From IMG/VR virus record IMGVR_UViG_2693429536_000010: 7,893 nucleotides of DNA; one strand, 5' to 3'. Below the pieces are notes generated by a model. That model searched no databases. It saw only the letters and a list, made by a program, of their open reading frames with translations, and was not told the origin of the DNA. This stretch comes from a virus (lineage: Duplodnaviria; Heunggongvirae; Uroviricota; Caudoviricetes). Each line of letters begins with the position of its first letter. Position 1 is the stretch's first letter. Position numbers and translations under genes: made by a program. This document shows positions 1-7,893 of the stretch, one piece after another.

Positions 1-223
1 CACACTTCCAGCTTTCTGCATCCAGCCAGCGACCATGCCATTCAACCTGACGAGAGACGTCACCTAAGCAGGCCCATAGCTTCCTGTTTTGGTCTAAGCT
101 GCGGTTGCGTTCCTGAATGGTTACTACGATTGGTTTGGTTGGGTCTGGAAGGATTTGCTGTACTGCGTGAATAGCGTTTTGCTGATGTGCTGGAGATCGA
201 ATTTCAAAGGTTAGTTTTTTCAT
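1..223 (-). CDS. ninB: NinB recombination protein, partial (start codon at 221-223, runs off the window edge)
   Basis: Minus-strand translation from 223 reads MKKLTFEIRSPAHQQNAIHAVQQILPDPTKPIVVTIQERNRSLDQNRKLWACLGDVSRQVEWHGRWLDAESWKC, which I recognise as the lambda NinB N-terminus. Not in the ORF track because no stop codon lies in the window. Confidence 0.85.
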   Translation of the reverse strand, partial: MKKLTFEIRSPAHQQNAIHAVQQILPDPTKPIVVTIQERNRSLDQNRKLWACLGDVSRQVEWHGRWLDAESWKC

Positions 224-240
224 GACTTCCCTCTCCCCCA

Positions 241-271
241 AATAAAAAGGCCTGCGATTACCAGCAGGCCT
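241..271 (-). terminator. Rho-independent terminator between ren and ninB (lambda tR2 position)
   Basis: Perfect 8-bp inverted repeat AGGCCTGC (248-255) / GCAGGCCT (264-271) with an 8-nt loop, followed on the minus-strand transcript by UUUUUAUU (241-247). Lies just downstream of the ren stop. Confidence 0.7.
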
Positions 272-296
272 GTTATTAGCTCAGTGATGTAGATGG

Positions 297-587
297 TCAT
301 CTTTTAACTCCATATACCGCCAATACCCGTTTCATCGCGGCACTCTGGCGACACTCCTTAAAAATCAGGTTCGTGCTCATCTTTCCTTCCCGTTCTTCCC
401 TAGTAGCGAACCGGTAATACACCGTTCGCCAGACCTTACCTTCGATAACCAGAAGACCTGCCCGTGCCATTTTAGCCGCGGCCTGATTTATGCTGGTTAC
501 TGTTGCGCCTGTTAACGCGGCAACGTCCGGCGCACAGAAGCTATTATGCGTCCCCAGGTAATGAATAATTGCCTCTTTGCCCGTCAT
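297..587 (-). CDS. ren: Ren protein (96 aa)
   Basis: 96-aa ORF in the lambda position after P; start overlaps the P stop (ATGA-type overlap at 584-587). Sequence MTGKEAIIHYLGTHNSFCAPDVAALTG... recognised as lambda Ren. Confidence 0.9.
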   Translation of the reverse strand: MTGKEAIIHYLGTHNSFCAPDVAALTGATVTSINQAAAKMARAGLLVIEGKVWRTVYYRFATREEREGKMSTNLIFKECRQSAAMKRVLAVYGVKR

Positions 588-1285
588 ACACTTGCTCCTT
601 TCAGCCCAAACTTAGCTTTGATTTCTGCGATCTTCGCCAGAGCCTGTGCACGATTTAGAGGTCTACCGCCCATGACAGGAAGTTGTTTTACTGGTTCAGG
701 TATAGCCTCACCACGGTTAATTCGTGCGGTCATACAGGACAGTTCATCGGCAGCCTTGCGCCGTAATTCCGCATCAGTAAGCGCATTGGCCCGCATGTTC
801 TGATACAGGTTGGTAACCAGCCAGTAGTGCGCGTTTGATTTCCACGGATAAGACTCCGCATCCGGATACAGGCCTCGCTTCCGGCAATACTCGTAAACCA
901 TATCAACCAGCTCGCTGACGTTTGGCAGTCCGGCGATAACGGATGCTTCTTCCCGGCACCATGCAACAAACTGCCCGGGTGATGGCAGAAATGGTCGATT
1001 CTGCCGACGGGCTACGCGCATTCCTGCGTTAACCTGTTCCATTGTGGTGATCCCGTTTTCCCGGAAAGCCAGAACCCACTGGCGGCGGATTTCGTTCAGT
1101 TCGTTCTGGTCACGGTTAGCCAGGCTCGCCGGGAAAGTTGCCAGTAACTGGCTGAACACACCGTTGATGATCTGCGCTACCTGCTGTACCTGAGGCTTTT
1201 CGTCGTACTGTTCCGGCATGTTGTTGGCGATCCGACGCATCTGCTCACGGTCAAAGTTAACCATCTGTGCGGCGATGTTTTTCAT
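584..1285 (-). CDS. P: Replication protein P (DnaB helicase loader), 233 aa
   Basis: 233-aa ORF MKNIAAQMVNFDREQMRRIANNMPEQYDEKPQ... recognised as lambda P; overlaps the O stop by 4 nt as in lambda. Confidence 0.95.
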   Translation of the reverse strand: MKNIAAQMVNFDREQMRRIANNMPEQYDEKPQVQQVAQIINGVFSQLLATFPASLANRDQNELNEIRRQWVLAFRENGITTMEQVNAGMRVARRQNRPFLPSPGQFVAWCREEASVIAGLPNVSELVDMVYEYCRKRGLYPDAESYPWKSNAHYWLVTNLYQNMRANALTDAELRRKAADELSCMTARINRGEAIPEPVKQLPVMGGRPLNRAQALAKIAEIKAKFGLKGASV

Positions 1286-2181
1286 AAATCCACCCCGTAA
1301 ATCCAGTCTGTGTTTGTCAGGTCGAGTTTTGGTTTGCTGGCTGTCACGACTGCCTGTTGCTTGTTACGGTTGATTTCGAGCTGGGTCCACTTGTCGCGGA
1401 GTTTGGCCGGGCTCAGCACATTACCGGACCAGAAGTTGTCCTGGCAGGCCCAGCGGAACAGCACACACATATCGCGGTGGTTACGTCCGTCACGTTCACG
1501 CATCAGGCGGATATCGTTAGCCCACCCTGCAAAATTCGGTTTTCTGGCTGATGGCGCGATAGTCTTCACCATGTCAAACATCCACTCTGCGGCGGTCAGG
1601 TCTTCTGCTGTCCCCCATTTGCTGCCGCTCTGAATTGCAGCATCAGGTTTCACCACAGAAAGGTCGTTTTCTGGCTGGTCAGAGGATTCGCCAGAATTCT
1701 CTGACGAATAATCTTTTCTATTTTCTTTTGTATTAGTGTCTTTTGTGTTCCCCTGTTTTGAGGGATAGCAATCCCCCAATTTGAGGGATGTTTTATCCCT
1801 CGTTTTAGGGGATTTTCCCTCGTTTTGAGGGATACACCATTCTGAGATGTTTTTATTTGGTCCAAACATGCCGCCTTGCTGCTTGATAATATTCATTCTG
1901 ACGAGTTCTAACTTGGCTTCATTGCACCGTTTGACAGGTAACTTTGTAATCTCGCTAAGTTGAGAATCGGTGATTCTGTCCATTGGTTTATTCCACCCAT
2001 AGGTTTTACGCAGAATGGCAAGCAGCACTTTAAACTGTCGCTTGGTCAGATCTGCGCCTGAATAAGCCTCAAGCAGCATATTTGATAGTCTGGCGTAACC
2101 ATCATCGAGATCTGCCACATTACGCTCCTGTCCGGCAAAGTTACCTCTGCCGAAGTTGAGTATTTTTGCTGTATTTGTCAT
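1282..2181 (-). CDS. O: Replication initiator protein O, 299 aa
   Basis: 299-aa ORF MTNTAKILNFGRGNFAGQERNVADLDDGYARLSNMLLEAYSGADLTKRQFKVLLAILRKTYGWNKPMDRITDSQLSEITKLPVKRCNEAKLELV... recognised as lambda O; contains the ori iterons internally. Confidence 0.95.
   Translation of the reverse strand: MTNTAKILNFGRGNFAGQERNVADLDDGYARLSNMLLEAYSGADLTKRQFKVLLAILRKTYGWNKPMDRITDSQLSEITKLPVKRCNEAKLELVRMNIIKQQGGMFGPNKNISEWCIPQNEGKSPKTRDKTSLKLGDCYPSKQGNTKDTNTKENRKDYSSENSGESSDQPENDLSVVKPDAAIQSGSKWGTAEDLTAAEWMFDMVKTIAPSARKPNFAGWANDIRLMRERDGRNHRDMCVLFRWACQDNFWSGNVLSPAKLRDKWTQLEINRNKQQAVVTASKPKLDLTNTDWIYGVDL
1700..1748. other. AT-rich DNA-unwinding region of ori-lambda, adjacent to the iterons
   Basis: Sequence ctgacgaataatcttttctattttcttttgtattagtgtcttttgtgttc is strongly AT-rich and lies immediately next to the iterons on the side expected for O-strand orientation. 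Confidence 0.7.
1749..1833. repeat. ori-lambda iterons: four tandem ~17-bp O-binding repeats, each an internal palindrome
   Basis: Plus strand shows TCCCCTGTTTTGAGGGA (1749-1765), ATCCCCCAATTTGAGGGA (1771-1788), TCCCTCGTTTTAGGGGA (1796-1812) and TCCCTCGTTTTGAGGGA (1817-1833), spaced about 22-23 bp apart inside the O coding region. Confidence 0.9.
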
Positions 2182-2184
2182 AAT
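2156..2184 (+). promoter_or_regulatory. pO promoter for oop RNA
   Basis: TTGAGT (2156-2161), 17-bp spacer, CATAAT (2179-2184), placed 7 nt upstream of the oop 5' end at 2192. Overlaps the O start codon on the opposite strand. Confidence 0.6.
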
Positions 2185-2191
2185 GACTCCT

Positions 2192-2268
2192 GTTGATAGT
2201 TCCAGTAATAACCTCAGAATTCCATCTGGATTTGTTCAGAACGCTCGGTTGCCGCCGGGCGTTTTTTA
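2192..2268 (+). ncRNA. oop: oop antisense RNA (~77 nt), overlapping the cII 3' end
   Basis: GTTGATAGTTCCAGTAATAACCTCAGAATTCCATCTGGATTTGTTCAGAACGCTCGGTTGCCGCCGGGCGTTTTTTATT matches the lambda oop RNA as I recall it; ends in a GC-rich hairpin plus T6 tract (2262-2267). Confidence 0.8.
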
Positions 2269-2507
2269 TTGGTGAGAATCGAAGCAACTTGTCGTGCCAA
2301 TCGAGCCATGTCGTCGTCGACGACACCCCATTCAAGAACAGCAAGCAGCATTGAGAACTTTGGAATCCAATCCCTCTTCCACCTGCTGATCTGCGACTTA
2401 TCAACTCCCACAGCTTCCGCTGTCTTCTCAGTTCCAAGCATTGCGATTTTGTTAAGCAACGCACTCTCGATTCGTAGAGCCTCGTTGCGTTTGTTTGCAC
2501 GAACCAT
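2214..2507 (-). CDS. cII: Transcriptional activator CII (97 aa)
   Basis: MVRANKRNEALRIESALLNKIAMLGTEKTAEAVGVDKSQISRWKRDWIPKFSMLLAVLEWGVVDDDMARLARQVASILTNKKRPAATERSEQIQMEF recognised as lambda CII. Start chosen at the internal Met (CAT at 2505-2507); the ORF-track 5' extension to 2567 runs across pRE and has no support. Confidence 0.95.
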   Translation of the reverse strand: MVRANKRNEALRIESALLNKIAMLGTEKTAEAVGVDKSQISRWKRDWIPKFSMLLAVLEWGVVDDDMARLARQVASILTNKKRPAATERSEQIQMEF

Positions 2508-2520
2508 ATGTAAGTATTTC
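2485..2520 (+). promoter_or_regulatory. pRE promoter with CII-binding direct repeat TTGC-N6-TTGC
   Basis: TTGC (2485-2488) GTTTGT TTGC (2495-2498) flanks the -35 position; candidate -10 around TAAGTAT (2511-2517). Oriented toward cI, overlapping the cII start on the other strand, as in lambda. Confidence 0.8.
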
Positions 2521-2586
2521 CTTAGATAACAATTGATTGAATGTATGCAAATAAATGCATACACCATAGGTGTGGTTTATTTTGAT

Positions 2587-2618
2587 GCCCTTTTTCAGGG
2601 CTGGGATGTGTAAGAGCG
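2587..2618 (-). promoter_or_regulatory. nutR N-utilisation site (boxA + boxB)
   Basis: On the minus-strand transcript: boxA CGCTCTTA (revcomp of 2611-2618), then boxB hairpin GCCCTGAAAAAGGGC (revcomp of 2587-2601), located between cro and cII. The rho-dependent tR1 is expected just downstream (about 2510-2586) but cannot be defined from sequence. Confidence 0.85.
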
Positions 2619-2626
2619 GGAATGTC

Positions 2627-3967
<1,341 letters not shown>

Positions 3968-4017
3968 TCCCCACCTCAATCTCGATAACAAAAAAACAAA
4001 CTATTTTCCGTTTAAAA

Positions 4018-4085
4018 ACAATGGAGTTTGTTTTTCACGCCCCTTTTTACAATATTTCTTGTTTACAACATACAATCTTCCTTGT
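4018..4085. promoter_or_regulatory. Left operator OL3-OL2-OL1, 434 type
   Basis: Three 14-bp ACAA-N6-TTGT sites: ACAATGGAGTTTGT (4018-4031), ACAATATTTCTTGT (4049-4062), ACAATCTTCCTTGT (4072-4085). Confidence 0.8.
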
Positions 4086-4090
4086 AATTT
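4062..4090 (+). promoter_or_regulatory. pL promoter
   Basis: -35 TTTACA (4062-4067), 17-bp spacer, -10 TAATTT (4085-4090), overlapping OL1/OL2. The predicted start near 4097 gives a leader of about 222 nt to N, the same as I recall for lambda. Confidence 0.6.
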
Positions 4091-4130
4091 TAAGCCATCA
4101 GCAGGACGCACTGACCACCATTGAAGGTGA

Positions 4131-4161
4131 GGCTCTTAAAAATTAAGCCCTGAAGAAGGGC
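4131..4161 (+). promoter_or_regulatory. nutL N-utilisation site (boxA + boxB)
   Basis: boxA-like GGCTCTTAA (4131-4139; first base G where lambda has C, from memory) followed by boxB hairpin GCCCTGAAGAAGGGC (4147-4161). Confidence 0.85.
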
Positions 4162-4318
4162 AGCATTCAAAGCAGAAGGCTTTGGTGTGTGTGATACGAA
4201 ACGAAGCATTGGCCGGAAGTGCGAATCCGGATTAGCTGCCAATGTGCCATTGCGGGGTGTTTTCGTTCAGGACTACGACTCCCACACACAACCAAAGCTA
4301 ACTGACAGGAGAATCCAG

Positions 4319-4642
4319 ATGGATGCACAAACACGCCGCCGCGAACGTCGCGCAGAGAAACAGGCTCAATGGAAAGCAGCAAATCCCCTGTTGGTTGGGG
4401 TAAGCGCTAAACCAGTTAACCGCCCTATTCTCTCGCTGAATCGCAAACCGAAATCACGAGTAGAAAGCGCACTGAATCCGATAGACCTTACGGTGCTGGC
4501 TGAATACCACGAACAGATTGAAAGCAACCTGCAACGTATTGAGCGCAAGAATCATCGAGTTTGGTATAGCAAGCCAGGTGAGTTCGGTATAACTTGTCAA
4601 GGAAGACAAAAGGTTAAAGGGGAATCCATTCCATTGGCATGA
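4319..4642 (+). CDS. N: Antitermination protein N (107 aa), lambda type
   Basis: MDAQTRRRERRAEKQAQWKAANPLLVGVSAKPVNRPILSLNRKPKSRVESALNPIDLTVLAEYHEQIESNLQRIERKNHRVWYSKPGEFGITCQGRQKVKGESIPLA recognised as lambda N with an Arg-rich N-terminal motif. Start at the internal Met; the ORF-track extension to 4187 would cross nutL. Confidence 0.95.
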   Translation: MDAQTRRRERRAEKQAQWKAANPLLVGVSAKPVNRPILSLNRKPKSRVESALNPIDLTVLAEYHEQIESNLQRIERKNHRVWYSKPGEFGITCQGRQKVKGESIPLA

Positions 4643-4650
4643 GGTACGTA

Positions 4651-5520
4651 ATGAAGAAGATTGATTACAAGTCCATACCAAAACCAATAGACTCAGCATC
4701 AGAGCGAAAAAAACACAAAAAAGAGGCTGAAAAATTAGCAAATTATATCAGTTTTATTAGAAACAATGCTCACGGCGATGGCGACAAGAAGTTGCTTTCA
4801 GATGCTCGGACCCAAGCGTTCGGTATACTTCGTAAGCAGATGCAATATCGTCTTCATCCTGGCTACATAATTGAAATTCGCCCTACTGAAAGACAATTGT
4901 TCTTATTAAACTCTGTCTTTGACTTTGTAAACGTAGTTGGAGATCTTATCGACAGGTCTGTAGATAAGGATCCTGATACAAATAGTTTTCTTCTAACAAA
5001 TAAAGAATACTTATATGGTAAATTCGGTATAAACGGATGGCAAAAATATGTACGCTTCTTACGTGCATTCGTTGATGCGTATAAAAATTCCGACATGATT
5101 TATACATATTTGCCTGGTGGTGATAATTGTACGCTTTCGGCAGACAATAGAATATTCATACCTGTACTTGGTCTTGGGCTGATTAATGCAGTAAATGAAA
5201 AAGATGTTATAATTGTTAAGCAGTGGCGAAAATATGAGGGATATAGATATCTGCCATGCTTTGATATATTAAAAATACAGAATAAATTCTATGTAAAAAT
5301 TAAATATAAAGAAGATATTTTCTTCCTCAGAAAAAACAAAGATCTTTTACAAGAACTTTCTGGTACAATAGATGTCATCTTAGGTTCTAGGTTTATAAAA
5401 GAACTGAAAGAAAGCAGGTCTTTCTCTCGTGTAGAGATAAGCGAGTCAGAGTTATGGGGTATATCAAATAATCCTGTAAACCACGCTCACCAACGAAACC
5501 CAAACAAAAAGTGGTCATAA
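4651..5520 (+). CDS. Hypothetical protein (289 aa), AT-rich accessory gene in the lambda sieB-ral position
   Basis: Long ORF MKKIDYKSIPKPIDSASERKKHKKEAEKLANYISF... with a GAGG Shine-Dalgarno (4641-4644) 6 nt before the ATG at 4651. An alternative ATG at 4639 overlaps the N stop. Very Lys/Asn/Ile/Tyr-rich; spot counts of 60-bp lines give roughly 17-40% GC against about 50% in flanking phage genes. No known family recognised. Confidence 0.7.
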   Translation: MKKIDYKSIPKPIDSASERKKHKKEAEKLANYISFIRNNAHGDGDKKLLSDARTQAFGILRKQMQYRLHPGYIIEIRPTERQLFLLNSVFDFVNVVGDLIDRSVDKDPDTNSFLLTNKEYLYGKFGINGWQKYVRFLRAFVDAYKNSDMIYTYLPGGDNCTLSADNRIFIPVLGLGLINAVNEKDVIIVKQWRKYEGYRYLPCFDILKIQNKFYVKIKYKEDIFFLRKNKDLLQELSGTIDVILGSRFIKELKESRSFSRVEISESELWGISNNPVNHAHQRNPNKKWS

Positions 5521-5662
5521 CCCGCTCAGGCGGATTTCATTTTCACGCAAACAACAGAATAAACACAGCGCTGTGTATTCATTCCAACGAGTGAATACAC
5601 GGAGCAATGTCGCTCGTAACTAAACAGGAGCCGACTTGTTCTGATTATTGGAAATCTTCTTT

Positions 5663-5690
5663 GCCCTCCAAGATGAGGGCGATTTTTTAT
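5663..5690 (+). terminator. Rho-independent terminator downstream of the AT-rich gene, upstream of ea10
   Basis: GCCCTC (5663-5668), loop caagat, GAGGGC (5675-5680), followed by GATTTTTTAT (5681-5690). Confidence 0.65.
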
Positions 5691-5708
5691 CTGTGAGGAT
5701 ATGAACAG

Positions 5709-6077
5709 ATGTCAAACATCAAAAAATACATCATTGATTACGACTGGAAAGCATCAATAGAAATTGAAATCGACCATGACGTAATGACAGAGGAAAAACT
5801 TCACCAGATTAATAATTTCTGGTCAGACTCTGAATACCGACTCAATAAACACGGCTCTGTATTAAATGCTGTATTAATCATGCTGGCGCAACATGCTCTG
5901 CTTATAGCAATTTCAAGCGACTTAAATGCATATGGTGTTGTGTGTGAGTTCGACTGGAATGATGGAAATGGTCAGGAAGGATGGCCTCCAATGGATGGTA
6001 GTGAAGGAATAAGAATTACCGATATCGATACATCAGAAATATTTGATTCAGATGATATGACTATCAAGGCCGCCTGA
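5709..6077 (+). CDS. ea10: Ea10 protein (122 aa)
   Basis: 122-aa acidic ORF MSNIKKYIIDYDWKASIEIEIDHDVMTEEKLHQINNFWSDSEYRLNKHGS... in the lambda ea10 position; GAGGAT Shine-Dalgarno 8 nt upstream. The 72-bp gap to cIII matches the lambda spacing as I recall it. Confidence 0.8.
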   Translation: MSNIKKYIIDYDWKASIEIEIDHDVMTEEKLHQINNFWSDSEYRLNKHGSVLNAVLIMLAQHALLIAISSDLNAYGVVCEFDWNDGNGQEGWPPMDGSEGIRITDIDTSEIFDSDDMTIKAA

Positions 6078-6149
6078 GCGCGGCGTTACCGCATACCAAT
6101 TACGCTTCACTCGAGGCGTTTTTCGTTATGTATAAATAAGGAGCACACC

Positions 6150-6293
6150 ATGCAATATGCCATTGCAGGGTGGCCTGTTGCTGGCTGCCCTTCCGAATCT
6201 TTACTTGAACGAATCACCCGTAAATTACGTGACGGATGGAAACGCCTTATCGACATACTTAATCAGCCAGGAGTCCCAAAAAATGGATATTAA
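6150..6293 (+). CDS. cIII: CIII (FtsH inhibitor), 47-aa variant with altered, shortened C-terminus
   Basis: AAGGAG Shine-Dalgarno (6138-6143). [47 protein letters not shown] matches lambda CIII through ...PKNG, then ends 7 residues short of the 54-aa lambda protein. Below the ORF-track length cut-off. Confidence 0.8.
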
Positions 6294-6403
6294 TACTGAA
6301 ACTGAGATCAAGCAAAAGCATTCACTAACCCCCTTTCCTGTTTTCCTAATCAGCCCGGCATTTCGCGGGCGATATTTTCACAGCCATTTTCAGGAGTTCG
6401 GCC
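6283..6403 (+). pseudogene. gam: N-terminal extension of the long Gam form (GamL), out of frame with the gam body
   Basis: ATG at 6283 encodes [34 protein letters not shown], recognised as the GamL N-terminus, in frame 1. The rest of Gam (from 6404) is in frame 2. This segment is 121 nt where lambda has 120, consistent with +1 nt in the T4 run at 6387-6390. Confidence 0.6.
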
Positions 6404-6700
6404 ATGAACGCTTATTACATTCAGGATCGTCTTGAGGCTCAGAGCTGGGCGCGTCACTACCAGCAGATAGCCCGTGAAGAGAAAGAGGCAGAACTGGCAG
6501 ACGACATGGAAAAAGGCCTGCCCCAGCACCTGTTTGAATCGCTATGCATCGGTCATTTGCAACGCCACGGGGCCAGCAAAAAAGCCATTACCCGTGCGTT
6601 TGATGACGATGTTGAGTTTCAGGAGCGCATGGCAGAACACATCCGGTACATGGTTGAAACCATTGCTCACCATCAGGTTGATATTGATTCAGAGGTATAA
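6404..6700 (+). CDS. gam: Gam, RecBCD inhibitor, short form GamS (98 aa), intact
   Basis: [98 protein letters not shown] is near-identical to lambda Gam from its internal Met; GGAG upstream. Confidence 0.9.
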
Positions 6701-6705
6701 AACGG

Positions 6706-7491
6706 ATGAGTACAGCACTCGCAACGCTGGCAGGGAAGCTGGCTGAACGTGTCGGCATGGATTCTGTCGACCCACAGGAACTGATCACCACTCTTCGCCA
6801 GACGGCATTTAAAGGCGATGCCAGCGATGCGCAGTTCATCGCATTGTTGATCGTCGCCAACCAGTACGGCCTTAATCCGTGGACGAAAGAAATTTACGCC
6901 TTCCCTGATAAGCAGAACGGCATCGTTCCGGTGGTGGGCGTTGATGGCTGGTCCCGCATCATCAATGAAAACCAGCAGTTTGATGGCATGGACTTTGAGC
7001 AGGACAATGAATCCTGTACATGCCGGATTTACCGCAAGGACCGTAATCATCCGATCTGCGTTACCGAATGGATGGATGAATGCCGCCGCGAACCATTCAA
7101 AACCCGCGAAGGCAGAGAAATCACGGGGCCGTGGCAGTCGCATCCTAAACGGATGTTACGGCATAAAGCTATGATTCAGTGTGCCCGTCTGGCCTTCGGA
7201 TTTGCTGGTATCTATGACAAGGATGAAGCCGAGCGCATTGTCGAAAATACTGCATACACTGCAGAACGTCAGCCGGAACGCGACATCACTCCGGTTAACG
7301 ATGAAACCATGCAGGAGATTAACACTCTGCTGATCGCCCTGGATAAAACATGGGATGACGACTTATTGCCGCTCTGTTCCCAGATATTTCGCCGCGACAT
7401 TCGCGCATCGTCAGAACTGACACAGGCAGAAGCAATGAAAGCTCTTGGATTCCTGAAACAGAAAGCCTCTGAACAGAAGGTGGCTGTATGA
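6706..7491 (+). CDS. bet: Bet (Red-beta) single-strand annealing recombinase, 261 aa
   Basis: [100 protein letters not shown]... recognised as lambda Bet; starts 5 nt after the gam stop as in lambda. Confidence 0.95.
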
Positions 7492-7795
7492 CACCGGACA
7501 TTATCCTGCAGCGTACCGGAATCGACGTGAGAGCTGTCGAACAGGGGGATGATGCGTGGCACAAATTACGGCTCGGCGTCATCACCGCTTCAGAAGTTCA
7601 CAATGTGATAGCAAAACCCCGCTCCGGAAAGAAATGGCCTGACATGAAAATGTCCTACTTCCACACCCTGCTTGCCGAGGTTTGCACCGGTGTGGCTCCG
7701 GAAGTTAACGCTAAGGCGCTGGCCTGGGGAATACAGTACGAGAACGACGCCAGAGCCCTCTTTGAGTTCACTTCCGGCGTGAATGTTACTGAATC
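7488..7795 (+). pseudogene. exo: exo (lambda exonuclease / Red-alpha), truncated; only the N-terminal ~103 codons are lambda-like
   Basis: Start overlaps the bet stop (ATGA). Translation matches lambda Exo through ...[12 protein letters not shown] (codon 103), then diverges at nt 7796 into 23 unrelated codons ending at the stop at 7866-7868. Lambda Exo is about 226 aa. Confidence 0.8.

Positions 7796-7893
<98 letters not shown>

Follow-up and report, generated by a model that had tools for sequence, protein, structure and literature searches.

The best-described relative of the locus considered here is the gam gene of phage lambda (UniProt P03702; PF06064; PDB 2UUZ and 5MBV). It lies upstream of bet and exo and encodes a 98-aa form, GamS, which has its own Shine-Dalgarno sequence, within an annotated form of 138 aa, GamL. 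'Presumably', each form is produced from a start site of its own (PMC11610958). When expressed from a pBAD plasmid, GamL and GamS both show activity (PMC5218532), and this fits an N-terminal extension that is neither needed nor harmful. Reviews still list both as isoforms and do not state which of the two matters. In lambda Gam, the Pfam model (98 positions) covers residues 41-138 only, and all solved PDB chains (2UUZ, 2UV1, 5MBV) are of the 98- or 99-aa form. A full-text literature search found no statement on a frameshift allele of gam and, with several primary papers outside its reach, none on which gam start lambda uses in vivo.

The window, which is the whole 7,893-nt stretch of DNA analysed here, contains a gam locus of this type. 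Like lambda, it has a 98-aa GamS with its own Shine-Dalgarno sequence, upstream of bet and exo. Unlike in lambda, the upstream ATG of the annotated 138-aa form is out of frame with GamS, and three substitutions separate the two GamS proteins. The Stx phages 933W, Min27, VT1-Sakai and Stx2 phage 86 have the same CCATTTT allele and the same 121-nt spacing as the window. They keep kil (annotated as a longer 89-aa ORF), of which the window lacks 98 bp, and they carry an A where the window has G6401 together with a few other leader substitutions. The gam-bet-exo region of the prophage in Escherichia coli 19KM2326N (NZ_CP151038.1) is three substitutions away from that of the window, but this prophage has an intact kil, a 54-aa cIII and an intact exo. 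More distant prophages of Citrobacter, Klebsiella, Raoultella and Pseudescherichia encode a Gam of 98 aa with the same start position as in the window and 69-75% protein identity; their upstream genes are unrelated, and they have neither kil nor the upstream ORF that begins with MDIN. Taken together, the window very probably carries the common T4 allele of lambda-type gam, whose sole product would be the 98-residue GamS, and the GamL stretch would not be a conserved coding region.

Arrangement of the gam locus

The + strand of the window corresponds to the direction of lambda pL transcription. The features of the locus and its surroundings are the following.

5709-6077, +, ea10-like gene (ORF list)
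6150-6293, +, cIII', 47 aa with an altered C-terminus, ending in …PKNGY and a stop where the 54-aa form ends in …PKNGSN.YGYPD and a stop (ORF list, alignment)
6269-6273, +, AGGAG that is the Shine-Dalgarno sequence of kil in relatives, 9 nt upstream of the MDIN ATG in the window
6278-6288, +, sole remaining copy of AAAAAATGGAT, the deletion junction (alignment)
6283-6435, +, 50-aa frame-broken 'GamL N-terminal' ORF in frame 1, ATG at 6283 and stop at 6433-6435 (direct reading, ORF list)
6329-6403, +, kil-gam leader, 75 nt (74 nt in lambda), part of the gam module
6385-6390, +, allele site with C6385 (T in lambda) and a T4 run at 6387-6390 (T3 in lambda), linked and giving a +1 shift
6392-6396, +, Shine-Dalgarno sequence AGGAG of gamS, with a 7-nt spacer to the ATG at 6404 (direct reading)
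6404-6700, +, gamS, intact, 98 aa, in frame 2 (ORF list, PF06064, PDB matches)
6706-7491, +, bet, 261 aa, intact, downstream partner in the Red operon (PF03837 RecT)
7488-7795, +, 5' part of exo, interrupted after 7795 (ORF list, comparison)
7796-7893, +, end of an IS21-like, IS100-family element (matches regions annotated 'IS21-like element IS100 family transposase')

The ATG at 6283 lies 121 nt before the GamS ATG, whereas this distance is 120 nt in lambda. The upstream frame therefore closes at 6435, out of frame with gamS and 32 nt inside it. By alignment, a single open frame of 138 codons with the 120-nt spacing is found in lambda (NC_001416), phage 434 and the E. coli UTAK-6 prophage. 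The window reads AGCCATTTTCAGG where these three read AGCTA-TTTCAGG, a T>C change at 6385 plus one extra T at 6387-6390. Both sit just 5' of the gamS Shine-Dalgarno sequence, and the spacing from that sequence to the ATG is unchanged. Read backwards from 6404, the GamS frame reaches a stop 19 codons off with no ATG before that stop; no ATG is thus found 40 codons upstream in frame with the GamS methionine. The frame offset is deterministic, and chance plays no part in it.

The first-pass annotation of this DNA had described the locus as a frameshifted long form with only GamS intact. Its coordinates, frames and N-terminal peptide are all confirmed by direct reading and the ORF list. Its count of 121 against 120 nt, with one extra T at 6387-6390, is borne out by the alignment to lambda, 434 and UTAK-6, and lambda indeed has a different frame arrangement. 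Its statements that no continuous 138-aa frame exists in the window and that the 98-aa ORF is kept with its own Shine-Dalgarno sequence also hold. The T>C change at 6385 beside the extra T, and the 98-bp deletion in kil that abuts the GamL ATG, were absent from it.

The GamS protein of the window matches PF06064 over positions 1-98 of 98 (E 2e-64, 214 bits against a cut-off of 25) and aligns over residues 1-98 with PDB chains 5MBV_A and 2UUZ_A (E 1.7e-60). It is about 97% identical to lambda GamS (differences L22I, D50G, S61A) and identical to the annotated protein of UTAK-6 and 19KM2326N. No NCBIfam model matched Gam, CIII' or the 50-aa ORF. gamS is under strong purifying selection; 21 of the 24 variable columns in its 297 nt are at codon position 3. 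With its own ribosome-binding site directly upstream of bet and exo in the pL operon, GamS would be translated from its own AGGAG and ATG on the pL transcript. The ~97% identity suggests that a GamS dimer would act as in lambda, where it is a DNA-end mimic that blocks the channel in which RecBCD binds DNA. Such a block would protect linear phage DNA and the substrates of Red recombination.

Several RNA features surround the gamS start. The kil-gam leader contains a terminator-like hairpin at 6353-6370, GCCCGG(CATTTCG)CGGGC, followed by GATATTTTCA up to 6380 (found by consensus scan only), and this hairpin is also recognisable in the Citrobacter and Pseudescherichia homologues. It may be one of the lambda tL2 sites. 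The lambda GenBank records annotate no terminator features in the kil-gam leader, and an Rfam scan of 5600-7000 returned nothing in the leader and only the cIII thermoregulator (RF01804, 88.5 bits), which is intact at 6137-6195, from upstream of the cIII start to across it. An effect of the allele on accessibility of the ribosome-binding site was considered and is unsupported: the T3 and T4 leaders are predicted to fold identically around this site, in structure as in energy, with no gain in stability over shuffled sequence for either (z ~ -0.4). A separate small hairpin at 6394-6411 (GUUCG / UGAAC, loop GCCA) encloses the U and G of the GamS AUG. Its two sides, in the spacer and in codon 2, covary in the 69-75% homologues (GUUC/GAAC vs GCC./GGC.). 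There, 83% of cells are paired vs 26-42% in slid controls and three pairs show double changes, from few independent events.

Frequency of the frame-broken allele

The T4 allele was traced with an allele-specific 50-mer (window 6363-6412), on which the lambda-type allele gives no 28-nt megablast seed. Full-length, ungapped matches were found at 2492 places in 2357 of 5426 complete E. coli genomes, whereas the reciprocal 49-mer of the lambda-type allele was found at 960 places in 889. The frame-broken allele thus makes up about 72% of lambda-type gam copies in finished E. coli genomes (2492 vs 960), a figure that counts copies, not independent events, in E. coli-centred collections with many related Stx prophages. 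The single 100% match to the 50-mer among complete E. coli genomes is 19KM2326N. All others have one mismatch, which is G/A at 6401 in the four carriers that were aligned. Among phages, 87 records contain the 50-mer, those of 933W, VT1-Sakai, Min27, BP-4795 and Stx2 phage 86 among them. The 933W record gives gam as 98 aa, and that of Stx2 phage 86 has two 'gam' CDSs, into which the depositors split the long form. The extra T is always linked to T>C (C at -18): both are present in 31 of 31 T4 haplotypes, and the other 16 of the 47 leader haplotypes lack both. An exact-protein look-up places the window as contig CYEP01000052.1 of NCBI assembly GCA_001284645.2, and the whole locus is base-identical in at least seven other assemblies or read sets.

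These counts bear on the two explanations between which the first-pass annotation had left the choice. The first was a sequencing or assembly error in a homopolymer, with a true T3 run and a continuous 138-codon gam. In its favour, the extra base does fall within a T run, and the window is a short contig (7893 bp) from a draft assembly and terminates in an IS. However, the haplotype consists of two changes, of which T>C is outside any homopolymer, and the same haplotype was obtained by many laboratories and platforms in the 2357 finished E. coli genomes and the 87 phage genomes. The base-for-base identity of the locus in at least seven further assemblies or read sets also speaks against an artefact, which would be expected in a single assembly and within the homopolymer alone. 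We give this explanation practically no probability. The second was a natural variant showing that GamL is dispensable in this lineage. The natural variant and the dispensability are supported by its wide recurrence in other lambdoid prophages, where the annotation had proposed to look for it. The restriction to one lineage was too narrow. The frame-broken state is the majority among lambda-type gam genes, and the in-frame arrangement of lambda is the minority allele. The T4 allele is common and natural, and it is already known, since long-standing public records carry it and annotate it correctly.

Many Gam matches of 97% identity in non-enteric genomes were left out as lambda contamination. 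Lambda sequence is present in assemblies of Shewanella, Pseudomonas, Neobacillus, Oceanobacillus, Kitasatospora and others (contigs L009-L022, L025-L026 and L034-L039). Several of these contigs have low coverage and a length of 48.4-48.5 kb, and the GamS that they encode is, like that of lambda, 97% identical to that of the window. They are almost certainly laboratory lambda DNA.

The kil deletion and the state of the prophage

Alignment with 434, UTAK-6 and 19KM2326N shows that 98 bp lying between two 11-bp direct repeats are missing from the window. Both repeat copies are present in 434 and UTAK-6, 98 bp apart; in one of them lies the kil ATG, and in the other that of GamL. For comparison with the junction at 6278-6288, the corresponding coordinates are 434-531 in contig L001 and 7795-7892 in contig L003. 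The loss, which would be a slippage-type event between the repeats, removes kil codons 1-33 (the kil ATG up to the GamL ATG) and shortens CIII from 54 to 47 aa. The Pfam model Lambda_CIII matches a product identical to the CIII' of the window in other contigs. Because the deletion abuts the GamL ATG, the MDIN ATG at 6283 is physically the kil start codon and stands behind the Shine-Dalgarno sequence of kil. In phages with an intact kil, the MDIN ATG has no Shine-Dalgarno sequence (…CTTATAAAAAATGG). The 50-codon out-of-frame ORF behind the kil Shine-Dalgarno sequence may be translated in the window as a junk peptide across the gamS start.

The junction was not found by exact-pattern scans of IMG/VR or the JGI metagenomes, and none of the best-matching complete E. 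coli genomes listed has it. An exact-protein look-up of the 47-aa CIII' found it in at least 24 contigs of other assemblies, several of them with full-length exo and int. The deletion occurs on both T4 and T3 gam alleles. In contigs L123 (4134-4550) and L129 (809-1225) it lies on the 120-nt allele, which places the Shine-Dalgarno sequence and ATG of kil in frame with the 138-codon GamL. This fusion is a natural construct that should express long Gam efficiently. The distribution points to a natural kil-less variant that is recurrent or recombining.

Further along the Red operon, exo is interrupted by an IS insertion that follows codon ~103 and within which the contig ends. Contig L126 of another assembly breaks off about 3 bp before the IS insertion point (at ~7792 of the window) and may carry the same insertion. 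Positions 1-6288 of the window differ from the UTAK-6 prophage by two substitutions and a 12-bp indel. Positions 6278-7795 differ from 19KM2326N by three substitutions, whereas gam-bet-exo differs from that of UTAK-6 by about 20. The left part is UTAK-6-like and the right part 19KM2326N-like, and the window is therefore a mosaic. A 12-bp in-frame (4-codon) deletion, ATCAGTTTATGA, is found at 3748 relative to both UTAK-6 and 19KM2326N. The product of the ORF at ~3575-3967, downstream of the cI-like repressor, has 130 aa in the window and 134 aa in other contigs. Two further contigs, L023 and L024 (E. coli ECMA0423 and Shigella flexneri SFBU1023), have at ~2850-3000 a gam of 82% identity without a start codon. 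The sequence directly upstream of it is unrelated, and we take it to resemble an IS end.

Loss of kil through the 98-bp deletion and the IS100-family element that cuts exo could suggest a defective prophage in decay, with the frameshift as a step by which gam turns into a pseudogene. Against this stands the finding that the allele predates these lesions and is independent of them: it accompanies an intact kil and exo in 19KM2326N and is present in phage genomes such as 933W. In contigs L121, L122 and L124 it occurs together with the same deletion but with full-length exo and int. The GamS ORF itself is intact, encodes the same protein as in UTAK-6 and 19KM2326N, and belongs to a gene under strong purifying selection. 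We consider decay very improbable as the origin of the frameshift.

Coding status of the GamL segment

Across relatives, the segment between the GamL and GamS starts is highly variable. The in-frame 40-aa extension is found in only 22 of the 79 IMG/VR loci that have enough upstream sequence. Another 18 of the 79 have the +1 allele with the MDIN start (121 nt), and 25 have the +1 allele with no MDIN start, their homology beginning just past the kil stop after a different upstream sequence. The upstream sequence is unrelated in 7 loci, a -1 allele (119 nt, ending in …TPFLFS and a stop) is present in 5, and the remaining 2 have both indels plus an internal stop. In the window, 46 nt (6283-6328) once formed the 3' end of kil and are read here in a different frame, with the kil stop TAA at 6326-6328. 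The leader that follows retains its homology in 47 of 50 haplotypes, including those with a different gene upstream, and is recognisable in divergent homologues. Over its 74 nt, it has 25 variable columns, four times the density of gamS, and these are distributed 5/9/11 over the GamL codon positions, a test on 25 sites only.

Seven divergent homologues at 69-75% identity each have a length of exactly 98 aa and start at the GamS methionine; two are from Citrobacter and one each from Klebsiella grimontii, Raoultella, Pseudescherichia, Escherichia sp. ESNIH1 and the Enterobacteriaceae bacterium isolate G50. In all seven, the frame upstream of this methionine runs back to a stop 2-39 codons away without meeting an ATG. 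The ribosome-binding motif of gamS, ..TTTCAGGAG, is kept or similar in these homologues: five of the seven have ..TT(C/T)AGGA(G/A), and those of Escherichia sp. ESNIH1 and Raoultella have merely GGAG or GAGG. Neither the 79 loci, nor the seven homologues, nor the codon positions show conservation of the GamL N-terminal extension. Varied indels, frequent upstream replacement and the lack of third-position bias indicate that the GamL-only segment behaves across relatives as non-coding DNA. On the alignments, the 'GamL' N-terminus of lambda is the last 46 nt of kil in the other frame plus a 74-75-nt leader that is apparently untranslated.

Could the 50-codon MDIN ORF nevertheless have a function, either as a small gene in its own right or as an upstream ORF that controls gamS translation, boosted in the window by the kil Shine-Dalgarno sequence? 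After the deletion an AGGAG stands 9 nt before it, it spans the ribosome-binding site and start of gamS, and gene callers give a 50-aa gene in several contigs. Its substitutions are, however, mostly non-synonymous and its indels frequent, it is missing from many IMG/VR loci, it has no Pfam or NCBIfam match, and its ATG is without a Shine-Dalgarno sequence in phages with an intact kil. Any effect in the window would be a by-product of the deletion and not a selected function. A role for the MDIN ORF is very unlikely.

A programmed +1 ribosomal frameshift at CAU UUU C (6384-6391) would restore a GamL-like protein from the T4 allele. After a +1 slip, the P-site UUU could pair anew as UUC, and the resulting peptide would resemble that of lambda GamL at this point, so UUU_C is a possible slippery site. 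It has no well-placed stimulator, though: the AGGAG lies downstream of the site, and the A site holds neither a rare nor a stop codon. The MDIN start is missing from 25 of 45 T4 loci in IMG/VR, other loci break the frame elsewhere (the 119-nt allele, internal stops), the upstream segment has no coding-type conservation, and the divergent homologues have no upstream ORF. A frameshift signal that depends on two conserved ORFs and a placed stimulator is exceedingly improbable here.

The polarity of the two alleles can be judged from four outgroup leaders (two Citrobacter, K. grimontii and isolate G50), which read CACAACCAAATTTCAGGA(G/A) or, in isolate G50, the one-base variant CGCATTCAAATTTCAGGAG. 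The outgroups share CCA with the T4 allele (CACAGCCATTTTCAGGAG), vs CTA in lambda. On this short alignment the in-frame T3 arrangement of lambda is therefore probably derived. A C>T change and a 1-nt deletion in the leader would join gamS to its 5' UTR and to the end of kil read in an alternative frame. The 138-aa GamL could then be a young overprinted extension, and T3/T4 a presence/absence polymorphism of a second, selected Gam isoform, but we regard this as unlikely.

The comparisons indicate that GamS is the conserved gam product and that the lambda allele provides the long form by accident. Where the T3 allele is present, in lambda and certain relatives, the GamL stretch would simply happen to form an open frame continuous with gamS; most relatives lack this arrangement, with no expected harm to gam function. 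Native gamma protein was reportedly found by Karu and colleagues in 1975 to have subunits of ~16.5 kDa, the size of GamL. GamL may for this reason be genuinely made in lambda itself, which is compatible with its being dispensable. The known mode of Gam action is unchanged by the comparative data. For annotation, the long form is missing from about three quarters of natural copies, and gam should therefore be called as a gene of 98 aa. At loci such as the one in the window, it should not be annotated as a frameshifted pseudogene, nor should the 50-aa upstream ORF be annotated as a gene.
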